From Candidatus Heimdallarchaeota archaeon (GTDB lineage: Archaea > Asgardarchaeota > Heimdallarchaeia > Heimdallarchaeales > Kariarchaeaceae): 32,000 bases of DNA. How positions within the stretch are numbered: position 1 is the stretch's first letter; the number at the start of each line of letters is the position of its first letter. The translations under genes and the position numbers were made by a program. This document shows positions 1 through 25,511 of the stretch, piece after piece. The stretch covers positions 270,001 to 302,000 of the forward strand of contig JASBSB010000006.1 of NCBI GenBank assembly GCA_030149205.1, written 5' to 3'. The notes under the pieces are model-generated. The model saw only the letters and a list, made by a program, of their open reading frames with translations. It was not told the DNA's origin and searched no databases.

Positions 1-57
1 CCATTTTGGCGCGCGGGTTCAAAAGGATCCCTGATCCTGAAATTCCCGCCCGTGTCA
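1..57 (+). tRNA. 3' part of a class II (long variable arm) tRNA, probably tRNA-Leu (Ser not excluded), with a T-loop intron; truncated by the window edge
   Basis: Variable-arm hairpin CCA-TTT-TGG (1-9); T-stem GCGGG (13-17) / CCCGC (45-49); T-loop TTCAAA|T after removing 24-43; acceptor 3' strand CCGTGTC (50-56); discriminator A57. The anticodon lies outside the window. Confidence 0.85.
24..43 (+). other. 20-nt tRNA intron at position 59/60 with a strict bulge-helix-bulge motif
   Basis: TTCA (18-21) pairs with TGAA (38-41); bulges AA|A and AT|T; intron hairpin GGATC-CCT-GATCC. Confidence 0.85.
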
Positions 58-4616: not shown

Positions 4617-4877
4617 ATGGAATGTGCTTCATGTGGATTTAAGGTCATTGAAACCGATATTTATTGCCCAAACTGTGGAAAAGCTGTGAATCTAAAAACA
4701 GACTCAAAGGACGTGCACAGGTGTGTCTGGTGTGGACATCAGTCCTTTAAAACTGATAAAAGCTCCTTGGACAAAGGCAGAGGTCTTACAGAACATGAAC
4801 TGGTTCTTAGGATCTGTGAAAACTGTGGATTTGTTCATTATTTTCTAGAAGGTGACATTCCACAAGAATTGGACTGA
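4617..4877 (+). CDS. Double zinc-ribbon protein (4 CxxC), paralog 2
   Basis: CASC, CPNC, CVWC and CENC with spacing similar to paralog 1; ATG 4617 preferred over TTG 4602 because a TTAAAA box lies about 25-30 nt upstream. Confidence 0.8.
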   Translation: MECASCGFKVIETDIYCPNCGKAVNLKTDSKDVHRCVWCGHQSFKTDKSSLDKGRGLTEHELVLRICENCGFVHYFLEGDIPQELD

Positions 4878-5186
4878 ATTCAGTTTATCTGGAGTTTGTT
4901 TATTATTCAAGATCAGATATATTTTCTAAATAATGATTCTGAGCCATCCTTTAGCTTCTAATATAGCGAACGGTAGATTCTTAAGTTGGTCTTAGTATAC
5001 TTTGTAGAAATACGATGGAATTCCAGAATGGAGTTAGATATCCAGGGTGATTAAGTATGATTCCAATCTCTCATTAACAAATTATTTTGGTATTTACTTC
5101 TAAATCTCAGTAAATTGAATAGAAATAAATTAAGAAGGGTAAATAAATACTGACATGAAGAAAATACTACTTTTCGACCTAAAGTT

Positions 5187-6067: not shown

Positions 6068-6331
6068 ATGGTTCAATAAATATCCCTCATGTTGTTTCAT
6101 AAACATTAAATCTGATAAATTTTGCCTGAATTGCTCTAATTCTGTGAGATGAACCAAAGATATGAAGACCCAAACAGGAGTTTATGATAGGGATTCTAAC
6201 CATTTTGAGCAGATAAAGCCCTATGAACAAAGGAATAGGTATCCCAGAACATGAGCTGATGCTTGAATAAGAAAAATTGCAAATTTGTTCACTATTTCTT
6301 GGAAGTTGATATCCCACAAGAACTGGACTGA
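6068..6331 (+). pseudogene. Decayed third copy of the double zinc-ribbon gene (closest to paralog 2)
   Basis: Colinear with 4617..4877: SC-CFINIKSDKFCLNC vs SC-GFKVIETDIYCPNC, and ends FVHYFLEVDIPQELD* vs FVHYFLEGDIPQELD*; both are followed by ATTCAGT; several stops and frameshifts inside. Confidence 0.85.
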
Positions 6332-6489
6332 ATTCAGTGATTTAGTTTTAGTTCCGTTAAATCTTTAAATTTACAGATTTGAAAATGCATGATTTACAGT
6401 TCATACATAACTAATTGATAACTTACAAATTGAGACTCAATAATTTCTATAGGAGTGCTTTAATAAACCAGAAATAATGGAAATTATAT

Positions 6490-8067
6490 TTGAACACACA
6501 AAACAACACCAACAGCAGAGAGAGAAAGAAAGAGGATTCATCACTGAGTCCAAAACAAAACTTTGGAAAGAATAATAAGGAGAATCAATTTAAAACAAAA
6601 TTCAATTCAGGTAAGAAGAAGAAAAATGGTGAAAATTTCAAACAAAGGAAGAGGAATGACCCAGACACAAAGATACCCAGCAAGGATCTAAAGACCAACA
6701 AAAAGAAAAGGATCAACAAGGTTGGCTCTCAAAAAACTGAGAATTCTACTATACCCAGATTACTAAATAATCATTCTAAGGAAGAACCCCTTCAAGTTAA
6801 TAACAATGAAGAAATGAGCTCCTTTGAAAGGTTTGGTTTTAATGATGCAATCAGACGCGCAATCAAAAAGGTGGGATACACCTCCCCAACATTGATACAG
6901 GAACAGGCGATCCAACCAGTACTCAACAGTACGGATCTTTTAGGCATTTCTAAGACTGGCTCAGGAAAAACAGCTGCGTTCATTCTACCACTATTACAGA
7001 TCTACTCAAATATTGACCTAAAAGAAGCCACTTCCCCTAAGATTTTAATAATAACCCCCACACGTGAACTCGCGATTCAGATTGGAGTTAATGTGGAAAA
7101 GTATGGAAAATACACAGGAATAAAACAGACAACCATATATGGAGGTGTGAGTCAGCACGAACAAGTCAAGAAACTTAGGAATAAGGACTCAATTTTTTTG
7201 ATTGCCACCCCCGGAAGATTGTTAGACCTGATAAACCAGGGACATGTAGATTTAAACTCTGTTAAAACACTAATTTTGGATGAGGCAGATAGAATGCTTG
7301 ATATGGGATTCATCCCTGACATGAAGAAAATTGTTGCCTACACCTCACAAAGGGAACAAACTCTACTATTTTCAGCTACCATGCCAGAAAAAATTCTGGA
7401 ACTCGCAAATGAATTTTTGAAGAGTGACTTTGTTCATGTCACGGGAGATCAACAATCAATCCCAGTGGATAAAATCAACCAAGAAATCTTCTTTGTCGAA
7501 AATAGAGAAAAATTTAATCTATTAAAGGCAATTTTGGAACAGGAACAAAACCATAGAGTGTTAATTTTCACCAGAACCAAATATGGGGCTGATAAGTTGG
7601 CCAGAAAACTCTCAAGCAAAAGATCCCGAATTGAGGCAATTCACGGGAACAAGTCTCAACAAAATAGACAAAAATCTCTGAAAAATTTTAGAATCAACAG
7701 ATCAAATATTCTCGTTGCAACCGATTTGGCAGCAAGAGGATTGGATGTAAAAGACATCACACATGTAGTGAACTACGACCTTCCCCGTGAGGCAGAGACC
7801 TATATCCATAGGATCGGAAGAACTGCGAGAGCTGGAAAATCCGGATATGCAATTTCTTTTTGCTCCAAAGATGAAAGAAAATTCCTTCCCCAGATAGAGG
7901 TACTGATGGGTAATCACATCCCTCGAGCAAAAGAAAACCCCTTTCAATCAGAGTTCCAGGAACCAATTTTAGCAAATCTAAATCGCAAGGTGAAACCCAG
8001 AAGATATAAAATTCGAAAAAGAAACAAATCTGCAAAAGCGAAGAACCGAAAAAGAAATGTAAATTGA
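6490..8067 (+). CDS. DEAD-box RNA helicase (RhlE-like) with a basic low-complexity N-terminal extension
   Basis: Q motif; KTGSGKT; PTRELA; TPGRLLD; DEAD; SAT; ATDLAARGLD; HRIGRTARAG. The core starts near Met109 (6814). Confidence 0.95.
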   Translation: MNTQNNTNSRERKKEDSSLSPKQNFGKNNKENQFKTKFNSGKKKKNGENFKQRKRNDPDTKIPSKDLKTNKKKRINKVGSQKTENSTIPRLLNNHSKEEPLQVNNNEEMSSFERFGFNDAIRRAIKKVGYTSPTLIQEQAIQPVLNSTDLLGISKTGSGKTAAFILPLLQIYSNIDLKEATSPKILIITPTRELAIQIGVNVEKYGKYTGIKQTTIYGGVSQHEQVKKLRNKDSIFLIATPGRLLDLINQGHVDLNSVKTLILDEADRMLDMGFIPDMKKIVAYTSQREQTLLFSATMPEKILELANEFLKSDFVHVTGDQQSIPVDKINQEIFFVENREKFNLLKAILEQEQNHRVLIFTRTKYGADKLARKLSSKRSRIEAIHGNKSQQNRQKSLKNFRINRSNILVATDLAARGLDVKDITHVVNYDLPREAETYIHRIGRTARAGKSGYAISFCSKDERKFLPQIEVLMGNHIPRAKENPFQSEFQEPILANLNRKVKPRRYKIRKRNKSAKAKNRKRNVN

Positions 8068-8412
8068 AAGATCTGGTGTTCATAGACCATATAGAATTTT
8101 CATAGAAATATCAAAAATTAATTTAATTCAGAAAGATAAGGAAGTAAATTATATGACAAGCTCTAACCCTTAATTTTAAGTAAGGCTTCTACAAGTTCAG
8201 AAAAAAAATTTTAATGAAGATTAGTGAAAAAAAAAAATTATAATACGTTTGTACTGTGCAAATCTTTTAGATCAATGTATTCAATCTATATTAAGATAAA
8301 TCAATAAATTAAATATTTATTCCATTTTAATCTTGTAAATCAAATCTCTAAATTGGTTAAATTCAATACATATTGTAAAATGATTTATCAATCTTGTAAA
8401 AATCATTAGAAT

Positions 8413-9252
8413 ATGAACCTGAATGATATTACCCCAATTACCAAAAGTCAAATCAAAAATGATAATATAAACATTGATTTATTTGGAATAGATGATCAAT
8501 ATAACACACTAGAGAATTTTGTCAATAATGCCTTTGATAGCAAAAGGGAATATACTACATTGTACCAGAAACTTGACTTTTATAATAATATACTTCTTAC
8601 TGGTCTGCCTGGAACTGGAAAAACTCGTTCTGTTTATAAATTGCTTTCAAATCAAAAAAATAATGTAAGGTTATATCAATTAAAGCTTGGAACATTGTTG
8701 CACGCCGATATGGGTAAAACTTCACAGATAATTGAAGACCTCTTCAATAGTATTAGAGATCAAGCTTCACCTCAAAAAAAAATGATTATTTTACTTGATG
8801 AAATTGATTCTATTGGACTTTCAAGGTTTAATTCAAGTGTATTAGATGGTATTCGAAGAGCTTTAATTTCATTAATGATAGAACTGGATAAAAACATTAT
8901 GAGGAAATATATCGTTTTTATCGGCATTTCAAATATACCTGAGTTCCTAGACCCTGCACTTGTTAGAAGATTTACTTTAAGAATCGAATACCCAGATGTA
9001 ATTTCAAAGAGAGAACTAAAGAAATTTCTCAACTATCTTGTTGAAGAAGATTGGGAATTTGAAAAAATCCATAAAATTGTTCAAGAAAAAGGATATACTC
9101 CCTCAGATATTAAAAACTTGTTTCAAAGGATATTAGTAGAAAATAAGTTTAACGAAGATATAAATTGGAATCAATCTTTGATTATAAAATTGCGTGATAG
9201 CGTATCTACAAAAGAATTAATGCAATTTTCAAAAGATAAATATTCTATATAA
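8413..9252 (+). CDS. Single-domain AAA+ ATPase (classic AAA clade)
   Basis: ILLTGLPGTGKT (Walker A); ILLDEIDSIG (Walker B); SN-PEFLDPALVRRF (second region of homology with arginine fingers). Confidence 0.92.
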   Translation: MNLNDITPITKSQIKNDNINIDLFGIDDQYNTLENFVNNAFDSKREYTTLYQKLDFYNNILLTGLPGTGKTRSVYKLLSNQKNNVRLYQLKLGTLLHADMGKTSQIIEDLFNSIRDQASPQKKMIILLDEIDSIGLSRFNSSVLDGIRRALISLMIELDKNIMRKYIVFIGISNIPEFLDPALVRRFTLRIEYPDVISKRELKKFLNYLVEEDWEFEKIHKIVQEKGYTPSDIKNLFQRILVENKFNEDINWNQSLIIKLRDSVSTKELMQFSKDKYSI

Positions 9253-9254
9253 TT

Positions 9255-9618
9255 TTATTCCTTCTCTTTTTCTCTCTCTTTTTCTTTCTCTATTTCCAGG
9301 TTTATTTCTAAGTACTCTTTATATGATATCCCATTCTTATCCAAGTGATTTTGTGCATTCTTAGATATTCTTCCCCTCGATGTTGCAATACCAACATTAT
9401 CCCTTTGAGTTATTTTTTTTGCGGTTTGGATGTTCATCCCTCTTTCATGTGTTGTAATTCTTTTTTTCTTACCCAATTTCCTAACCTCTAGTATTATATC
9501 TAATTATTCTCATTATTTTTTCATGATCTTTTTCATCATACTCTAATTCAGATCCAATTCTCGTTACCTTAATCCCTCTCCTTCTAAAAAGAACCATTAA
9601 TGAATTAAGATTTCTCAT
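9255..9618 (-). pseudogene. Possible frameshifted restriction-endonuclease-like (Mrr/PD-(D/E)xK) remnant, or two small ORFs (9481..9618 and 9255..9476)
   Basis: A 45-aa ORF (MRNLNSLMVLFRRRGIKVTRIG...) overlaps an open frame 9255..9503 reading LDIILEVRK...VGIATSRGRISKNAQNHLDKNGI; the resemblance is by eye only. Confidence 0.35.
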
Positions 9619-10007
9619 AATATAACTAGATAATTTAACTCGAACCATACTTTTGAAAAGAGAAATAACTAATAAATGTTATTGACATCGCTTGAATCAA
9701 TGTTATAATTGAAACATATGCTATTTTTATTTAAATTATTATTTTATTTTAAAAATTTTAAGAATTTAAGAAGAAATCTTTGTTAATTAAGATAAATACG
9801 GATAGGTGATACGGGCTCCTAAAAATTATATCACCTCCTTGAATTTTATTTCAACAGTTACAATTTCTAAATTTTCGTTATAAAATTATTCATGTCAAAA
9901 CCCTTTCCACAGTCTTTTCCAAATCAGTGTTGTCAACCTGAAAAATGAATCCCTTAAATTCAAATGTTTGTAGAAAAGTATTAATTGTGGAATAATATAA
10001 ATAATAT

Positions 10008-10280
10008 ATGGCATCTTCAATAAAAATCAAAGATGAGACAAAAACTGAGCTTGACAAGTTACAAGCACAACTAATAATAAGGATAGGGAAGAAAATATCA
10101 CAGCAAGACCTAATTGAACTATTAGTGAAAAAGGGTTCTCGTAATATAGATGAATTAATTGAATTCAAGCCATTAGATCCCTCAATTATTGATGAGATAT
10201 TATCAGCATCATCGAAATCAAAAATTCAAACAACTCCCGATATGCTCGATGACTTATTAAAGAGGGAGATGATTAGTTAA
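10008..10280 (+). CDS. vapB: VapB-type antitoxin with an RHH-like N-terminus, paralog of 5224..5481
   Basis: MASSIKIKDETKTELDKLQAQL...GKKISQQDLIE aligns by eye with MPTTIKISDASKNKLEKLRARL...GRKFKQEELID; abuts a PIN gene. Confidence 0.75.
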   Translation: MASSIKIKDETKTELDKLQAQLIIRIGKKISQQDLIELLVKKGSRNIDELIEFKPLDPSIIDEILSASSKSKIQTTPDMLDDLLKREMIS

Positions 10281-10679
10281 TTGAAATATTTCATTGACAC
10301 ATCGTTTCTATTTGCAATAGCTAGTGAGGATGACAAATATCACAAGAGAGCAGTTAACAAATTAAAATCTTTTAGAAAAACTGAAAACATCCAATTAATT
10401 ACTTCAGATTATGTAATTGATGAATTACTGTTGTTATTAATGAAATACCAGAACATGAACAATGCAATACATTGGAGTGAAATCATTATGGAAGGTAAAT
10501 TCTGTTCCTTATATTTCTGCAACAATATGATTTTCAATTCTGCAATCAGTATCTTTCAATCTGAAGCAGATGAAAGAAAGCCATTAACATTGACAGATGC
10601 TGTTGTATATGTTTCCAGCAAAACATTATCTTGTGATGAAATTTTGACCTATGATAATAGGTTGAAAAATTATCGATAG
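10281..10679 (+). CDS. vapC: VapC PIN-domain ribonuclease toxin
   Basis: YFIDTSFLFA, DD-x-H-x-x-A, TSDYVIDEL, LTLTDA and TYD motifs; TTG start directly after the antitoxin stop. Confidence 0.9.
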   Translation: MKYFIDTSFLFAIASEDDKYHKRAVNKLKSFRKTENIQLITSDYVIDELLLLLMKYQNMNNAIHWSEIIMEGKFCSLYFCNNMIFNSAISIFQSEADERKPLTLTDAVVYVSSKTLSCDEILTYDNRLKNYR

Positions 10680-10772
10680 GTAAAACTACATAAAAAAAAT
10701 TCAGTTTGTACTTTTTGCATAGATTCAAAATTTACAATCAATCTTTATAAATTAAATTCAATTATAATTTTT

Positions 10773-11210
10773 ATGAAGCTATTTTTGACAGTTAAGGAAG
10801 GATCCAAACAAAGAAGAGTTTTCGACTATAAGGTGATGTTCTTTCTTAACAAAGGTTTTATACTTCGAGGAACTAATCTGATAATTGATCCCCACAATTA
10901 TGACATTTCCTCTAATGGTTACCTCTACGCTGCGTTTGAAAAAGATCTGCCAGATAATGTTGATATAGAACTTAAAAGAAGAATACTTGGATTAGAATTA
11001 AAAAAAATTTTGTCAAATCAAAGATATAATGTCTATTTAATTGATATAAAGACGAATAAGGAGTACGGTCCAGGGGATAATTATGAAAATATCCCTGATG
11101 AATACGAACAAGAATTTAGATTAAAAAAACAAGAGCTTGAGGGTCGGATTGAGGTCTTCCTTAGAACTAATGACAAACTCACTCGTAAAATACCCGAACA
11201 TAAGATTTAA
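10773..11210 (+). CDS. Hypothetical protein, possibly truncated by a nonsense codon (frame stays open to 11369)
   Basis: 145-aa ORF with TTTATAA 23-29 nt upstream; 52 further sense codons follow the TAA in the same frame. Confidence 0.65.
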   Translation: MKLFLTVKEGSKQRRVFDYKVMFFLNKGFILRGTNLIIDPHNYDISSNGYLYAAFEKDLPDNVDIELKRRILGLELKKILSNQRYNVYLIDIKTNKEYGPGDNYENIPDEYEQEFRLKKQELEGRIEVFLRTNDKLTRKIPEHKI

Positions 11211-11641
11211 GAACTTTCAAGATTAGAAGGATTTTTGAATTTAAAATCTCCAGAATTGAATCTATTGATTGACAACGATAAGATGAATAAATATGAAAGT
11301 TACAGGGATGAAGCTTTAGAACTTAAAGCTTATAGAACAAAATTTTTATTGGGACCTATAGAATTCTAACCCTTAAAAAAAAATCAAAATAAAAACCCTG
11401 AATCTAAACTATCTAAAACAAATTTTAGTACCTTGAAAGTCTATATTTTTTGGCTTTGAGTTCTTTAGTGAGTTTAATCGAATTTTGAACGATAGAATCA
11501 ATTTTCTTGTTCCTCACTTATTCGATTAAAATAAACAATAATTGTCAAAATGAAAAATAAATGACATAAATCAGATATTTATTTGATAAAACAAATTGAA
11601 CTGTAAAATTTTATTAGAGATTATTTTCAAGTAGAGTTAAT

Positions 11642-12487
11642 ATGCAGTACTCTCTTGATAAACTGAAAGAATTAGGATTACTACTTGAACATGAGAATGT
11701 TGCAGATTTTCGATCTGATTTTTATAATACTAAACTCTGGGCTGAAGTATTTTGGAGTAGAAAATATTCTCATGAAAGGAGACTGGATCCAGAGATTGAT
11801 GTTGTGAAAAAATATAACCCAAAAAAGGTTCTTGAAATAGGGTCTGGATATGGAAGGTTTACCTTGAAACTTACTCGGATACTTGAAGATGCATCAATAC
11901 ATGGTGTGGAAACGTGTACACATTTTAAGAAATATGTTGACATTTATACTAAAGATAATCCAAAGTTGATGGATGTTACATTTTCCTTTGTTGATTTTTT
12001 CAATAATGAGGAATTTACTGAAAAGAACTTTGATCAAATCATATTACCCATGAATACACTGTCATCATTTCCATTAGAGACTTATCCTCAAATTTTTGAA
12101 AAGGTAAAGGATCACCTAACCAAAGATGGGAAGTTTATATTCAGTACCCACAAGGGTTCTCCGGAGAAAATTGAAGAATATTTGAAACATTATTTGGAAA
12201 GGTATTCATCTGAAATGATTTTAAGGTGGGGGATTGATAGAATACTGGTTGAGGATTTCAATACAGATTATGAGGTTAAAAATTATGGTGCAAAGATCAA
12301 TTCTTTGAAAGTGAATACACGATTTGATTTCAATTATTCAATTATTGAACGAAATTTATTCACATTCCATAGAGAATACATTTTTCACGAATTCTTTGAT
12401 AATTATATTCGGAAATTGAATTTTGAAATTGTTGAAAAGGATTCATCATCACATTCTAATGTTTATGTGTTGCAAGCGATTAGGTAA
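11642..12487 (+). CDS. Class I SAM-dependent methyltransferase
   Basis: Motif I VLEIGSGYGR; downstream VDFF, FDQIILP and LTKDGKFIF motifs. Confidence 0.87.
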   Translation: MQYSLDKLKELGLLLEHENVADFRSDFYNTKLWAEVFWSRKYSHERRLDPEIDVVKKYNPKKVLEIGSGYGRFTLKLTRILEDASIHGVETCTHFKKYVDIYTKDNPKLMDVTFSFVDFFNNEEFTEKNFDQIILPMNTLSSFPLETYPQIFEKVKDHLTKDGKFIFSTHKGSPEKIEEYLKHYLERYSSEMILRWGIDRILVEDFNTDYEVKNYGAKINSLKVNTRFDFNYSIIERNLFTFHREYIFHEFFDNYIRKLNFEIVEKDSSSHSNVYVLQAIR

Positions 12488-12554
12488 TATATTTTTTGAA
12501 TTTACCTTTTGTTAATATAGTAATACAGTTCATTGTGTACCCCTTTAACAGACT

Positions 12555-12949
12555 GTGGAAAGTGATATAACACCATCTGATTGCCCAGTTGAGACGTATT
12601 ATGCTGACAAGTCCTACTGCGGGGAGAATATTATCGGGCTGCTGGCTCAGGAGTCAGTTCAGACGTCGATCCCCAAGAAATCAAATCTCAGGGTTTATAG
12701 AACTTCCAGTCCCATAGATAGAATGGGTCGGTTGCAAAGCCAACATCTAGGCATTTACAGGAGAAACTGCCGGGTGTACCTCAGAGCCAAAGCTGAGCAG
12801 GTATTTGGTTACCTGAAACAGCGAACACGCCTCCTGCGGGATCACAAGGCTAAAAACAAGTAGAAGACCTTTATGTGCTCTGTGGTCTGGTAAAACCTCA
12901 GAATCCGAGCTCAGGGGTGATCCCAGTGTAAACGAATTTTGGGACAAGC
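12555..12949 (+). mobile_element. IS5-like (DDE_Tnp_1) insertion-sequence relic: transposase 3' fragment plus right terminal repeat
   Basis: YADKSY, SIPKKSN, Y-x-R-x-x-AEQVFGYLK; the frame continues through stops at 12861 and 12891 to VVW*NL, ending at TGA 12920; putative end GAATTTTGGGACAAGC at 12934-12949; locally GC-richer. Confidence 0.78.
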
Positions 12950-13000
12950 TTATTAGAAGAAAAAAATATAAATACTTTCATTTAATAGTTTGTTTCTGCA

Positions 13001-14452
13001 TTATAAAAGTTGTGTTACCCTTTTCAGTCCATTTAATAATACTGGTGACTTTGGATTGATTGATAATCCTCTTCCCAAAATTTTTTTTGCATAAATAAAA
13101 TCTTTCATATCAATTAGTAACCACCCAAATCCTCCTAAAGCATATTCATTATTTGGTTCAAATGTTAAAACCTGTTCATAAATTCTTTTAGATTTTTCAA
13201 AGTTTCCGATTTTTCTAAGTGCAGCCGCATAGCCGATTTGTGTAACAATTCCTTCTACACTATTCAATGATTGCTTTAGTAATAATCTTTCATAGAGAAA
13301 AATAGCATCTTGATATTTTTGCATTGATTTTTTCAATGCAGCAGTTGCAATTAAAACAGCACTATGGTTTGGATCTATAGATAAGCCTCTTTCTAATATA
13401 TTTTCAGCTTCATTTAGTTTTCGAATATCTCTATAACAACCACCTAGACTTGCATAAGAATCTAGCTCTGATTCATTAATTTCAATTGCTTTTTTGTGGT
13501 AGCTAATGGCTTTTTGATAATTTTTAATACGTCTATGCAATATACCTAAATGCGAATATATTATACTTTTGTCCGGATATTCCTCGATCAATAATTCCAT
13601 TTTTCTATTTGCTTCTTCAAAATCTCCTATTTGAAATGATGTAAGTGCATACATCCATTTAACGGCAAATAAATTCTCTTGATTTAGATTATCAATTTCA
13701 ATCTGAGAAAAAATCTCTAATGATTTTGAAGGATTACCAACTAAGAAGTATAGATTACCTCTTGCAATTTGCCAATCAATTGGCCATTCTTCCTCAGTGT
13801 GTTTTCTCAACCACTGTAATAATGTTTCGAATTCTTCTATAATTTCATTCCAAAGGATTATTTTTGTGTCTGAAGTTTCAATGTATAAAAACTCAGGAAT
13901 TTCTTCAAGAATATACTTTATATTCTTCTCAACAATTGATCTTATTTTTTTTCCTTTTTTTGATGTTACGTCATACCCATCCTTATAAAACCAAAATACA
14001 AAGGTACTAATTTTATGCTTGGAATAAGGACTAGACAGAATATTTCTGTAACTAAAATTGATTGAATAAGTGTTTTGTTCATTTAATTTCTGAAGTTTAT
14101 CTTCTAACTCTTCATTGATATTTTGCCAATAACAAATCCCATCTTTTTGAGTTAAATCAACCACACATAAAAATATTGGATTTTCATGATTTGCCCAATG
14201 TTTTAGCCATTCAGTTTTGAAAGAATATGTTAATTGATTATGTTGATTGTACTTTGGTGATTTAGTTCCTTTTATCTGTACTTTAAAAGCATTGTATGTC
14301 CCAATTTCCTCATCAATTGGTATCTTCACATAAAGATCTTCACCAAAGTCTTGGTTCATTTCTTCAACAACCCAATTCCATTTCTGTAAAATAGAAATTA
14401 CATAATTAACTGCGTTTCGTTCTGTATTATACGTATTATTTACTTTTGGCAT
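13001..14452 (-). CDS. DUF4365 (restriction endonuclease-like) N-terminal domain fused to about 7 TPR repeats
   Basis: ERNAVNYV...QDFGEDLYV...FKVQIKGT is the DUF4365 D-G-D...QxK pattern; the C-terminal half has ~34-aa repeats (e.g. YSHLGILHRRIKNYQKAISYHKKAIEINES). ATG 14452 preferred over GTG 14461. Confidence 0.85.
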   Translation of the reverse strand: MPKVNNTYNTERNAVNYVISILQKWNWVVEEMNQDFGEDLYVKIPIDEEIGTYNAFKVQIKGTKSPKYNQHNQLTYSFKTEWLKHWANHENPIFLCVVDLTQKDGICYWQNINEELEDKLQKLNEQNTYSINFSYRNILSSPYSKHKISTFVFWFYKDGYDVTSKKGKKIRSIVEKNIKYILEEIPEFLYIETSDTKIILWNEIIEEFETLLQWLRKHTEEEWPIDWQIARGNLYFLVGNPSKSLEIFSQIEIDNLNQENLFAVKWMYALTSFQIGDFEEANRKMELLIEEYPDKSIIYSHLGILHRRIKNYQKAISYHKKAIEINESELDSYASLGGCYRDIRKLNEAENILERGLSIDPNHSAVLIATAALKKSMQKYQDAIFLYERLLLKQSLNSVEGIVTQIGYAAALRKIGNFEKSKRIYEQVLTFEPNNEYALGGFGWLLIDMKDFIYAKKILGRGLSINPKSPVLLNGLKRVTQLL

Positions 14453-14642
14453 ACTTATCACTTCATTAATTCTGGTTATTAATTAGATAATGAGCATAAT
14501 TGCACCCTTTTCATCATTAATTCAAAGAACCCCATATTAATAAAAATTGTTAACATTATTAAAAATACTCTTTTATTGGATTTGTTAATTTGATCCTTTT
14601 AATGAAGATTTTATAAAATAAAAGAGTAAAATTTTGAACTAT

Positions 14643-14713
14643 AATTAGTTTACACAGGAATCACCCCCTGAGCTTGAGGGTTTAGTGCTTGTCCAAGGAG
14701 TTTTTGAACAAGC
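14643..14713 (-). mobile_element. Second, inverted and highly deleted fragment of the same IS, plus a 27-bp element with two terminal repeats
   Basis: The reverse complement of 14643-14673 (GCTCAGGGGGTGATTCCTGTGTAAACTAATT) matches 12908-12938 (GCTCAGGGGTGATCCCAGTGTAAACGAATT); 14687-14713 reads GCTTGTCCAA-GGAGTTT-TTGAACAAGC. Confidence 0.7.
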
Positions 14714-14789
14714 TTATTATAAATTAAGAGTACACCTTTGAAAGATTAGAATGCAGAATATTTAATTACATAAAGACCAAATATTACAT

Positions 14790-15176
14790 GTGGATATTAA
14801 TTTAGTTTATCACAATCTGGCAAATTCTCAACCAAATTTGTTAAAACTTCAATTTCAGGAGCAATTGAAGAATATAATCTCTCTCTGCAAACAGAGTGAT
14901 CTTCTATTAGAAAACAATCATCCTGAGCATTTAATAGGAATATTGAAAATCAAATTTCAGGAGTTTACTAATTTTATAGTATTAGTGGAATATGTACAAA
15001 AGAAGGATGATAATATATCATATGATCATAGAGATATCAGAGTGATCTGGCTAGTTAATCCAGAAACCGAAAAACCAATTGAACTAGAACTAACATATGA
15101 TCGGGGTTATTGGAACCAATTTGGAATTTATAATTGGAAGGAATTCAAGTTGCAAATAATGAAAAAGGTCAATTAA
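14790..15176 (+). CDS. Hypothetical protein, first gene of a putative three-gene operon
   Basis: 128-aa ORF, GTG start with TTTAAT 24-29 nt upstream; its end overlaps the longest start of the next ORF. Confidence 0.65.
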   Translation: MDINLVYHNLANSQPNLLKLQFQEQLKNIISLCKQSDLLLENNHPEHLIGILKIKFQEFTNFIVLVEYVQKKDDNISYDHRDIRVIWLVNPETEKPIELELTYDRGYWNQFGIYNWKEFKLQIMKKVN

Positions 15177-15562
15177 AACTAATCAGAGGATTAAACTTGA
15201 CATGTAATAACAATAATGATAATTTTCCTTACTTTTGGGAAAAAATCAATCCAACAATATATCACACAATTTTATTGATTGCTGGTTTTTTAAGGGACTT
15301 AAACCTATTTACATCATTTCAATCATATTTTCATGGTTCAATAACTTTAAAGAACCACATTCCAAAAGATATCGATTTAATAATAGTTTGCAATGATAAA
15401 GTAAAGACAATATTTCAGAGAATGTTTATCAAGTTACAGAAGGAAGTACCAATTCAACTAGATGTGATTTACTTCAATAGAGTAGAATTTTCTAAAGCAC
15501 TCGAAAATCCAAACCACCTTCTGAATACTAATAAGTCTATAATTGAAATATCACTTAATTAA
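15134..15562 (+). CDS. Minimal nucleotidyltransferase (pol-beta superfamily, MNT-like)
   Basis: YFHGS...KDIDLIIV (GS plus DxD) and third aspartate in QLDVIYF; the exact start is uncertain. Confidence 0.82.
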   Translation: MEGIQVANNEKGQLKLIRGLNLTCNNNNDNFPYFWEKINPTIYHTILLIAGFLRDLNLFTSFQSYFHGSITLKNHIPKDIDLIIVCNDKVKTIFQRMFIKLQKEVPIQLDVIYFNRVEFSKALENPNHLLNTNKSIIEISLN

Positions 15563-17140
15563 ATGCATTCATATCATCAAATCTCGCCATTGCAAGCTTG
15601 GTTTCGATTTTTACTAGATTATACTTCATCAATACACGAAGGTGAGAATAGGCTTCAAGGAAACAGGAACCGCAAGACAAAATTTTACTTATTTTCTTTG
15701 GAAAACTTATTTCTATTAAATAGGATTGCAAAAGACAAAAAAATTGATTCGTTTGTTTCAAGCAAAATTGATGCAAAAATTGACGCCATACTTGATATTT
15801 TACAAAATCCACCAACAACCAATTATTATCAGGAATGTAATCCTCATAGCAATTCGTATGAAAAAATTCCTGATTGGCCATGTTATTGGATAATGAGAGA
15901 ACTATATTATCGTTTTCTTGAAAAAAAAATCGGAGAAGAACGTTTTAATCAAAATACCAGATTAATTTCATCAATTGATAATTACTTGTATACACGTATA
16001 CCAGAAATTGGATCGAAGTTCAATATAATTTCAAAACCAGCAATATTTATAGCAGTTTTTGGCTATAGTGTATATGATGTAATTTCGAAGTTTGGTAAAC
16101 CAAAATATTATCAAACAGCTGTAGGTTTTAGAGATAATTGTCATAATTATATAATCGATTTTATAGAAAATCTCAGTCAAAATATCACTGAGGTAGATTC
16201 TGAAAAAAGTATTATACTACACTCGATGTTAATTGATTTCTTAGTGAATAATCATGGTAGTGCTTATCAAGATCAAATTAATGAATTAAAGTCAAATATA
16301 GAAATAATAATAAACGAATTGGATAGGATAGCTGATGTACCTGCTGCATTAAGTCTGCTTGTTGATGTCGAGAATGATTTGTATGGAAAATTATTAAAGA
16401 AATCGGTTGAAATTTATAAAAATGATTTTAGTGGTTCTGCTTATACTAAAACAGCAGAACCTGCATATATTTATATCTTAGATACACTTAATACTAATGA
16501 GAAAAATTTAGTTGATGAAGTTATTTGGCTTTTTGAACCATCAAAGCATGAATTTAATAGTTACATCGTTCATCATACTATTCGAATATTAAATATGATT
16601 AATAGTAATAGTTCTATGCTAACCCTAATAAATACAGAAAAAACAAAAATTAAAGAAAAGTACTTTAGAGACCATTTCCAGTCGCATTTTGAACTATTAG
16701 GAAATAGCTCTGGAACTTTTTCTATTAGTGCAGAAGACCCCAATAGAAGGGAGGGTTTTTCAGACCTTGTGATTAAAGACAATATAATAAATAGTCAAAT
16801 GACTATTAGTTGTAAGGTATGGAAAAGAAATTTTGATGACCATCCACCAGTATATCAATTAATCGGTGATATGGGTACACATGAAACTGTAGGGATACTA
16901 TTTATGGTTAATAATAGCATTAAAAAGAAAATTGATGAAGAATACATTGAACTACTAATTAAAAATCATCAATTATATGTTGAAAATTCATTTAAGGAAA
17001 TTAATAAAAATAATGGTGTTTCCCATTATTTGTCAAAATATTACATTGATGATGTAGTTTATACCATTCATCACATTATTTTCAATATTGGCCCTTTCAT
17101 TAAAACTGAAAATCCCTATGAAAAAGTTAGAAAGAAATAA
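15563..17140 (+). CDS. Large protein with an unknown helical N-terminus and a C-terminal PD-(D/E)xK nuclease-like domain
   Basis: EKYFRDHF...SAEDPNRREGFSDLVIK...TISCKVW...VYQLIG...GILFMVN matches the E..RD / G.sD / ExK-W / QL pattern, but ExK reads SxK; TAA-ATG abuts the NTase gene. Confidence 0.7.
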   Translation: MHSYHQISPLQAWFRFLLDYTSSIHEGENRLQGNRNRKTKFYLFSLENLFLLNRIAKDKKIDSFVSSKIDAKIDAILDILQNPPTTNYYQECNPHSNSYEKIPDWPCYWIMRELYYRFLEKKIGEERFNQNTRLISSIDNYLYTRIPEIGSKFNIISKPAIFIAVFGYSVYDVISKFGKPKYYQTAVGFRDNCHNYIIDFIENLSQNITEVDSEKSIILHSMLIDFLVNNHGSAYQDQINELKSNIEIIINELDRIADVPAALSLLVDVENDLYGKLLKKSVEIYKNDFSGSAYTKTAEPAYIYILDTLNTNEKNLVDEVIWLFEPSKHEFNSYIVHHTIRILNMINSNSSMLTLINTEKTKIKEKYFRDHFQSHFELLGNSSGTFSISAEDPNRREGFSDLVIKDNIINSQMTISCKVWKRNFDDHPPVYQLIGDMGTHETVGILFMVNNSIKKKIDEEYIELLIKNHQLYVENSFKEINKNNGVSHYLSKYYIDDVVYTIHHIIFNIGPFIKTENPYEKVRKK

Positions 17141-24770: not shown

Positions 24771-24837
24771 AGCTCTCTTCTGACTGCTTAGTATAAAATA
24801 GTTGATTTTAAGTTCTAAAGTAATAAAGGCAAAATCA

Positions 24838-24948
24838 TACCGGGAGGGGGAATTTCATCCAACATGAGAAATGTCAGATTTTGAACCCCCGAACCTCTAC
24901 AGGATGAGGACCTAAACCTCACGCAATTGGCCACTATGCGATCCCGGT
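24838..24948 (-). tRNA. tRNA-Leu(UAG) with a 28-nt T-loop intron
   Basis: Acceptor ACCGGGA/TCCCGGT plus discriminator A; anticodon stem TGAGG/CCTCA with loop TT-TAG-GT (anticodon 24912-24914); long variable arm CCT-GTAG-AGG; T-stem GGGGG/CCCCC; mature length 83 nt without CCA. Confidence 0.95.
24852..24879 (-). other. tRNA intron at position 59/60 with a strict bulge-helix-bulge motif
   Basis: TTCA/TGAA central helix; bulges AA|A and AT|T; intron hairpin TCTGACAT-TTCTC-ATGTTGGA. Confidence 0.92.
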
Positions 24949-25118
24949 AAACTAGGTGCAAGACCTTAATTTACCTGCTCAATATCTGTTAAAAAGCATT
25001 CTTATACTGTTTGAGAACAATAGATGATTTCATATTTATGGTTGAAAGCCATTTGAAACCTCATCTTCAAAAATGGAAGTTAGATAAAATTTCCTTAAAT
25101 CAGATTCATTAATTGTTC

Positions 25119-25511
25119 TTACTTTTCAAAACACTTGATTTTTTCTTTAAAAAGTTTCTCTACCCAATGAAGAGGGTCTTTCAACTCCTGAGCAACACGG
25201 AGAGTTAGATCATAAAATTCAATACGCTCTGTAAATGCGCAATTGTTTACGTCAAGATAAGTCAAAAGAGTTCCTAAGCCAGCCCGCTTGTTCCCATCAA
25301 CGAAGTAATGGTTTTGGATTATTCTGACATAAATGTACGCCGCTGTTTCTACAATATTTTTCTTTCCTAGGTAAACAGCATTGGGGACTGAATCTATGAA
25401 GCTCTTCAAGCCATCTGGGTTCATTATTCCTCGTTCACCTCCAAATACCTCAATGCTCGAATCGTGAAGATTTTTTATCTGGTCATAGTTTGGAATTTTC
25501 ATTAGCACCAT
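25119..25511 (-). CDS. doc: Doc-type Fic-family toxin (death-on-curing)
   Basis: LHD...FGG-RG; IIQNHYFVDGNKRAG (Doc HxFxDGNKR variant). Confidence 0.9.
   Translation of the reverse strand: MVLMKIPNYDQIKNLHDSSIEVFGGERGIMNPDGLKSFIDSVPNAVYLGKKNIVETAAYIYVRIIQNHYFVDGNKRAGLGTLLTYLDVNNCAFTERIEFYDLTLRVAQELKDPLHWVEKLFKEKIKCFEK

Follow-up and report, generated by a model that had tools for sequence, protein, structure and literature searches.

The window, by which the whole 32,000-nt stretch analyzed here is meant (C2:270001-302000 of a 3.3-Mb genome whose source DNA is a sediment metagenome), contains on its minus strand a gene for tRNA-Leu(UAG) with a 28-nt insert in the T-loop, and begins with the 3′ part of a tRNA-Ser(GCU) gene. 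At the 3′ end of tRNA-Leu(UAG) lies a gene for a HAD hydrolase, followed by a glyoxalase-like gene and genes for an S9 peptidase, a beta-eliminating lyase, and a phosphodiesterase. Directly upstream, on the same strand, a small gene of the Fic/DOC family is found (25119-25511, minus strand). The features relevant to the two tRNA genes are listed below in window coordinates; a slash within a motif marks the splice site.

24838-24948, minus strand: tRNA-Leu(UAG) gene, precursor 111 nt, mature tRNA 83 nt (ARAGORN on the spliced sequence)
24880-24948, minus strand: 5′ exon, tRNA positions 1-59, with the anticodon UAG at 24912-24914
24852-24879, minus strand: 28-nt intron at position 59/60 (removal restores the cloverleaf; strict BHB scan)
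24838-24851, minus strand: 3′ exon, tRNA positions 60-73
24882-24885, minus strand: exon strand of the central 4-bp BHB helix, U54 U55 C56 A57 (hand-built pairing)
24879-24881, minus strand: 5′ bulge A58 A59/A, following the exon strand of the central helix
24854-24857, minus strand: intron strand of the central helix, UGAA (hand-built pairing)
24851-24853, minus strand: 3′ bulge A U/U60, following the intron strand of the central helix
24858-24878, minus strand: inner hairpin h′ of 8 bp, two of them G-U, closed by the 5-nt loop UUCUC
24831-24834, minus strand: T4 run, 4 nt past the discriminator (read from the sequence)
1-57, plus strand: 3′ part of tRNA-Ser(GCU), full gene at C2:269954-270059 of this genome, with a 20-nt intron at 24-43

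In the unedited 32-kb window, ARAGORN called no tRNA, and Rfam yielded none at the gathering score, nor at E values up to 10 around the site; the weak Rfam matches to FTX_4, mir-308, and sn2903 obtained from the unedited window were dismissed as chance. When positions 24852-24879 were deleted, ARAGORN returned tRNA-Leu(tag) of 83 nt, occupying exactly 24838-24948 on the minus strand (24837-24949 when flanks were included), which bears out the original prediction that a complete cloverleaf appears only without this segment. The spliced molecule comprises an acceptor stem of 7 bp (positions 1-7/66-72), a 3-bp D stem, a 5-bp anticodon stem, and the long variable arm of 14 nt with a 3-bp stem; the discriminator is A73 (A at 24838), and CCA is not encoded. 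Both exons are intact, as is the 7-nt anticodon loop (UUUAGGU), which means that an intron at 37/38 is absent. At the start of the acceptor stem, A1-U72 takes the place of the usual G1-C72; A1-U72 is also present in the orthologue of the relative G008 (G008:C313:7637-7721), and G1-C72 in the three relatives G001-G003. The D-loop is two bases shorter than in the relatives. Downstream, the T4 run is likely to be an archaeal oligo-T terminator, judging from its sequence; upstream of the gene, no convincing archaeal TATA box was recognized by eye.

The cloverleaf and the hBHBh′ structure of the precursor were drawn by hand, with each pair checked, and all assigned pairs are standard. The T-stem itself constitutes the outer helix (G49-G53/C61-C65, GGGGG/CCCCC, 5 bp). 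It is followed by the 4-bp central helix, in which U54-U55-C56-A57 pairs with UGAA of the intron, and by the inner hairpin, with the bulges A58 A59/A and A U/U60 comprising 3 nt each. Two 3-nt bulges on opposite strands, a 4-bp helix between them, and helices on both sides constitute a strict hBHBh′ motif; the predicted strict BHB intron at 59/60 of a tRNA-Leu(UAG) with an uninterrupted anticodon loop was thus found as described. The intron of tRNA-Ser (24-43) shares the geometry AA/A ... TGAA AT/T with that of tRNA-Leu, and the two hairpins are unrelated, also in agreement with the earlier description. The free energy of the BHB conformer was −39.2 kcal/mol, compared with −42.6 kcal/mol for the unconstrained minimum free energy (MFE) fold; its T-arm part lies within 1.8 kcal/mol of its own optimum, the MFE fold favoring, by the same 1.8 kcal/mol, a 6×6 internal loop over two bulges.

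How frequently introns of this kind occur in the genome was addressed with a scan for strict BHB motifs on both strands of the whole 3.31-Mb assembly (4-bp central helix, outer and inner helices of 3 bp, introns of 17-140 nt). When the ∼76,000 candidates were spliced and run through ARAGORN, no more than 23 yielded a tRNA that bridged the splice junction, 17 of them at exactly 59/60 and with the form TTCR-AN/N ... YGAA-AN/T-CC. Because so few of the candidates gave a tRNA, and 17 of these 23 did so at this one site, chance is excluded as the origin of the match in tRNA-Leu. A second scan, which required only a T-stem, the central helix, and an acceptor stem, yielded 22 genes with 59/60 introns of 17-29 nt. 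Once these were removed, ARAGORN called 45 tRNA genes (of which two or three are questionable); without intron removal, ARAGORN and the Rfam tRNA model each detect 22-23. A 59/60 intron is therefore present in at least 22 of the ∼45 tRNA genes of this genome, about half of which also have an intron in the anticodon loop. Six of the 22 carriers are class II tRNAs (Leu UAG, CAG, and GAG; Ser GCU, GGA, and CGA). The other 16 belong to class I (Gly ×3, Ala ×2, Glu ×2, Thr, Lys, Gln, Trp, Met, Asn, Asp, Arg, and one uncertain), and tRNA-Ser(UGA) has no 59/60 intron, so that the trait is not specific to class II tRNAs, contrary to what had been supposed. Four of the carriers (Met, Asn, Leu-CAG, and Asp) form a cluster within 6 kb (C8:142483-148626 of this genome).

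The pairs that define the motif vary in a coordinated manner across the 22 genes. The pair 57:intron(−6) is A-U in 15 and G-C in 7 of them, with neither mismatch nor wobble, in a set that was retrieved in identical composition by a pattern permitting any R/Y combination at this pair, mismatches included. The first two pairs of the inner helix are formed in 22/22 introns by 4-5 pair types, and the relaxed scan did not demand pairing there. Because of this covariation, the helices are taken to be under selection, as a spliced intron predicts. In 15 of the 22 T-loop introns the inner helix opens with a U-A pair, and eight introns have the ends AUC...GA-UGAA in common, which creates a C-box-like GAUGA; these features may stem from a common origin of the introns or be favored by the enzyme.

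The assembly, which is 93.5% complete, contains a single tRNA-Leu(UAG) gene as far as was found by BLAST with the gene itself and with those of relatives, and in long open frames CUA is used at 13.9 per 1000 codons. Because the gene is the only one found and its codon is common, it must give rise to a working tRNA, and the intron must be spliced, unless a second copy lies in the part of the genome that the assembly lacks. The opposite notion, that the insert is an unspliced disruption which renders the gene a pseudogene or leaves a tRNA working with an enlarged T-loop, would account for the failure of ARAGORN and Rfam to recognize the unspliced gene; it is, however, very improbable, given not only the demand for this sole isoacceptor but also the strict BHB and the intact exons, and given that 21 other genes, many of them again sole isoacceptors, share the design with helices maintained by covariation. 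The same intron-bearing sequence was present in a hydrothermal-vent metagenome from a separate study, on two overlapping contigs with ∼99% identity or more, and the intronless junction was not seen in the DNA contigs aligned at the tRNA-Leu intron. As the same allele occurs in this independent metagenome, the insert does not stem from misassembly of a single sample.

Two encoded proteins identify the host as an Asgard archaeon, namely a eukaryote-type actin (445 bits to Pfam Actin) and a Vps25-like protein of ESCRT-II (63 bits; 0 of 14 control prokaryotes matched); a Pfam search for profilin gave no match in the genome, but none in the controls either. The type of its splicing endonuclease, the determination of which had been proposed together with the original prediction, was assessed from its two EndA paralogues, both of which contain the N- and the C-terminal domain of EndA. 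The α paralogue aligns without gaps to α from Aeropyrum pernix (3p1z_B; residues 18-170, phmmer E 2.6e-31). The alignment spans the Crenarchaea-specific loop, where K49 of the query lies opposite APE K44, as well as the active-site Tyr/His/Lys; the loop of the catalytic subunit is thus of the crenarchaeal type. Because the match is at the E 1e-31 level, this protein is regarded as the Asgard orthologue. The second paralogue is devoid of the 9-residue specificity loop and has its best matches in EndA from Methanopyrus and Methanocaldococcus. As judged from these sequences, the pair fits an (αβ)2 enzyme with an L1 loop, its assembly and the role of the second subunit being predicted; such enzymes have been reported in Asgard genomes (Kaneta et al, 2018; PMC5829648). 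An RtcB ligase is also present (555 bits). With this machinery, the primary transcript would carry the 28-nt intron between T-loop positions 59 and 60, and U54-U55-C56-R57 would pair with the 3′-proximal YGAA of the intron to form the 4-bp central helix, flanked by the T-stem as the outer and the intron hairpin as the inner helix. By analogy with established archaeal splicing, both bulges would be cut by the two-subunit EndA, the catalytic subunit of which has the crenarchaeal-type specificity loop; RtcB would then join the exons and probably also circularize the intron.

A stretch at ∼8000-17000 of the window is AT-rich (GC 0.27-0.33 vs 0.36-0.44 elsewhere) and contains genes for an AAA ATPase, a methyltransferase, a DUF4365-TPR protein, and a 525-aa protein without Pfam match. 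The stretch resembles an accessory or defence island and adjoins the 3′ end of neither tRNA. A 66-nt direct repeat (82% identity; 4819-4884 and 6273-6338, 1.45 kb apart) is located upstream of a gene for a DEAD-box helicase. The idea that tRNA introns are protective has been published (Randau and Soll, 2008, as reviewed in PMC4090602), and, with an accessory stretch at ∼8-17 kb, one might presume that the two tRNAs bound an integrated island and that the intron was retained as a shield of the tRNA 3′ half from integrating elements. This explanation is improbable, and reading the two tRNAs as the borders of an island is contradicted by the evidence at this locus. Between tRNA-Leu and the AT-rich stretch lie approximately 7 kb of conserved genes that are syntenic in G001. 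In the original prediction, the two tRNAs were said to flank an accessory-rich region; the 3′ end of tRNA-Leu, however, adjoins ordinary core genes, and those for the HAD hydrolase and the S9 peptidase flank the orthologous tRNA in a relative (synteny with G001). In line with the absence of an att duplication already stated there, the 14-nt 3′ exon of either tRNA has a single match in the window at up to 2 mismatches, with no relevant repeats. Tyrosine integrases (PF00589) had no match in C2:270001-302000; the three encoded in the genome all lie elsewhere.

The history of the intron was traced at the orthologous locus. In G001 and G003, which belong to the same genus, tRNA-Leu(UAG) directly precedes the orthologue of the HAD hydrolase, as it does here, but is intronless. 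G002, also of this genus, has a 30-nt intron at 59/60, on a contig too short for a synteny check, and the tRNA-Leu(UAG) genes of four genomes from three other genera of the family are intronless. One gene of G004 (L015), at first called Leu(tag) with two introns, was discarded as an orthologue, being syntenic with the Leu(GAG) locus of this genome. Also rejected was an 88-nt tRNA-Leu called by ARAGORN on the unspliced gene of G002 (G002:C144:851-938), a misfold with three G-U pairs in the acceptor stem. This call pairs the 5′ strand of the acceptor with bases of the intron; intron-bearing genes can thus be mis-annotated, not only missed. Its presence in some members of the genus and absence from others mark the intron as young or labile at this locus. 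The patchy distribution fits the repeated independent gain that had been suggested earlier, the accompanying restriction to class II tRNAs being the part that did not stand. G001 and G003 count as one lineage because they are 97% identical in RpoB, and a single-gene RpoB tree, in which the G002 sequence is partial and on a long branch, did not separate the order of this genome, G002, and G001/G003. On present data, parsimony does not discriminate between two separate gains and one gain followed by one precise loss.

If the intron was ancestral to the genus, it would have been lost precisely in the lineage of G001/G003, for example via cDNA of the spliced tRNA or by gene conversion. The introns of this genome and of G002 do occupy the same site and are similar in length (28 vs 30 nt), and their common ends (ATCTG...TGGATG, with TCTG...TGGA as the helix ends) gave the best score of all comparisons. 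Yet the likeness is limited to 8 helix-end bases, and ends of the form TC...GA are also found in other introns of the genome; with the ends fixed, the middles of the two introns were no more alike than shuffles (P = 0.37). As all four genomes outside the genus are also without the intron, loss is a serious alternative that we nevertheless hold to be less probable than its opposite.

Whether T-loop introns as such are more frequent here than in related genomes was assessed with a 59/60 signature, which had 22 matches in this genome compared with 0-10 in 80 other genomes of its class (reversed-pattern controls, 0-3), a comparison in which other designs are undercounted because the signature was built on the introns of this genome and is limited in intron length. 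A signature with a longer gap, N{28,58}, was too noisy for counting long T-loop introns in relatives. By a less biased measure that points in the same direction, the Rfam tRNA model detects 22 genes here, compared with 38 (G001), 35 (G003), 36 (G008), and 39 (the closed genome G015) at similar completeness, and 26 in G002. Because of this difference, standard annotation would miss approximately half of the tRNAs of this genome. Together, these counts suggest from sequence that T-loop introns have expanded in this lineage, and perhaps in G002, which is a lead and not a demonstration.

A recent gain in the lineage of this genome, possibly an independent one in G002, as part of such a lineage-specific expansion would explain why the syntenic locus is intronless within the genus and the gene intronless outside it, why the introns of this genome and G002 resemble each other at their helix ends only, and why signature matches are many and Rfam-detectable tRNAs few; it also agrees with the many gains on terminal branches reported for Asgard archaea (Goswami et al, 2026). 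Since the bias of the signature toward the introns from which it was derived, the single lineage formed by G001 and G003, the order of branching that one gene did not separate, and the equally parsimonious loss all weigh against it, we consider recent gain about evenly poised between right and wrong. More specifically, a burst of 59/60 gains may have occurred recently in this genome, and to a lesser extent in G002, by way of a generic cassette, consisting of a hairpin and YGAA-AU, that fits the invariant T-loop of any tRNA. The exon strand of the 59/60 central helix is the near-invariant UUCR, and for this reason one intron tail (YGAA-NN) fits any tRNA. The burst itself is put forward tentatively, as a rather unlikely scenario. 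If true, it would make the clade a natural system for catching the mechanism by which BHB introns arrive, since a single genus has the same syntenic tRNA genes both with and without the intron. For Thermoproteales, copies of one intron in different tRNA genes, pointing to transposition, have been reported.

Taken together, the locus very probably represents a functional, single-copy tRNA-Leu(UAG) gene of an Asgard archaeon with a 28-nt T-loop intron that is predicted to be spliced by EndA and RtcB, is one of at least 22 of its kind in the genome, and is young or labile at this position. By itself, it matters little beyond being one more example of a published trait, and its intron is an ordinary case of that trait. 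The annotation of one genome is corrected in that the sole tRNA-Leu(UAG) found, which serves ∼1.4% of the codons, is invisible to standard tRNA finders. What is new is the presence or absence of the intron at a syntenic locus within one genus and the apparent enrichment of 59/60 introns in this genome. The wider pattern, with approximately half of the tRNA genes split at one site in the T-loop and apparently fewer such introns in relatives, is of modest specialist interest. To learn how BHB introns arrive, a point on which the 2026 census of Asgard introns expressly took no position (Goswami et al, 2026; 10.64898/2026.10.13.758758), one needs close relatives that differ at defined loci.

Introns at 59/60 have been known since the 2000s, and dense, repeatedly gained tRNA introns of Asgard archaea, with hot spots in the T-arm, were published in 2024-2026. 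Non-canonical BHB introns at 59/60 were reportedly described by Marck and Grosjean in 2003 and by Sugahara et al. in 2008. The position is among the non-canonical ones listed for archaeal tRNA introns (Yoshihisa, 2014; PMC4090602). In three Asgard genomes, 92-95% of the tRNA genes contain introns, often non-canonical and often more than one per gene (Valentin-Alvarado et al, 2024; PMC11291895), and Asgard introns concentrate at 37/38 and in the T-arm, where insertions lie at canonical BHB motifs and have been gained repeatedly (Goswami et al, 2026; bioRxiv 10.64898/2026.10.13.758758). Against this background, the novelty of the trait falls, as the original prediction had foreseen should such introns prove to be documented: both the site and the density of Asgard introns were already in the literature (PMC4090602; PMC11291895; 10.64898/2026.10.13.758758). 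The survey of the tRNAs of this genome, which had been named as a check, gave at least 22 of ∼45 genes with a 59/60 intron.

Compared with the 59/60 introns known before, those described here share the site, the strict hBHBh′ motif, and the dependence on an EndA of broad specificity. However, the former were mainly from Crenarchaeota and Nanoarchaeota, in which they occur among many positions, whereas here 59/60 alone is occupied in approximately half of the tRNA genes of an Asgard genome. With the published Asgard introns, the present ones have in common the Asgard host, multiple introns per gene, the clustering of introns at 37/38 and in the T-arm, boundaries marked by BHB motifs, gains that were repeated and in many cases recent, and the fact that many genes are missed by standard callers. 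They differ in that the two studies (PMC11291895; 10.64898/2026.10.13.758758) center on Atabeyarchaeia and Jordiarchaeia (the Freyr/Jordi families) and attribute lower burdens to several Heimdallarchaeia, whereas here approximately one intron per gene is found and 59/60 dominates. The predicted endonuclease resembles the (αβ)2 EndA of A. pernix (PDB 3P1Z/3AJV) in its two paralogues, in the loop with its Lys, and in the catalytic Tyr/His/Lys of α; it differs in that the likeness is that of a phmmer match at the E 1e-31 level and that assembly and specificity are predicted here. The closest parallel is the canonical intron at 37/38. In both cases a 5-bp stem is the outer helix, the first four bases of the loop form the central helix with the 3′ part of the intron, the cut falls between loop bases 6 and 7, and the same enzymes act; the difference is the location in the T-arm instead of the anticodon arm. 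As both sites lie between the sixth and seventh base of a 7-nt loop on a 5-bp stem, the 59/60 geometry would be the exact counterpart of that at 37/38.
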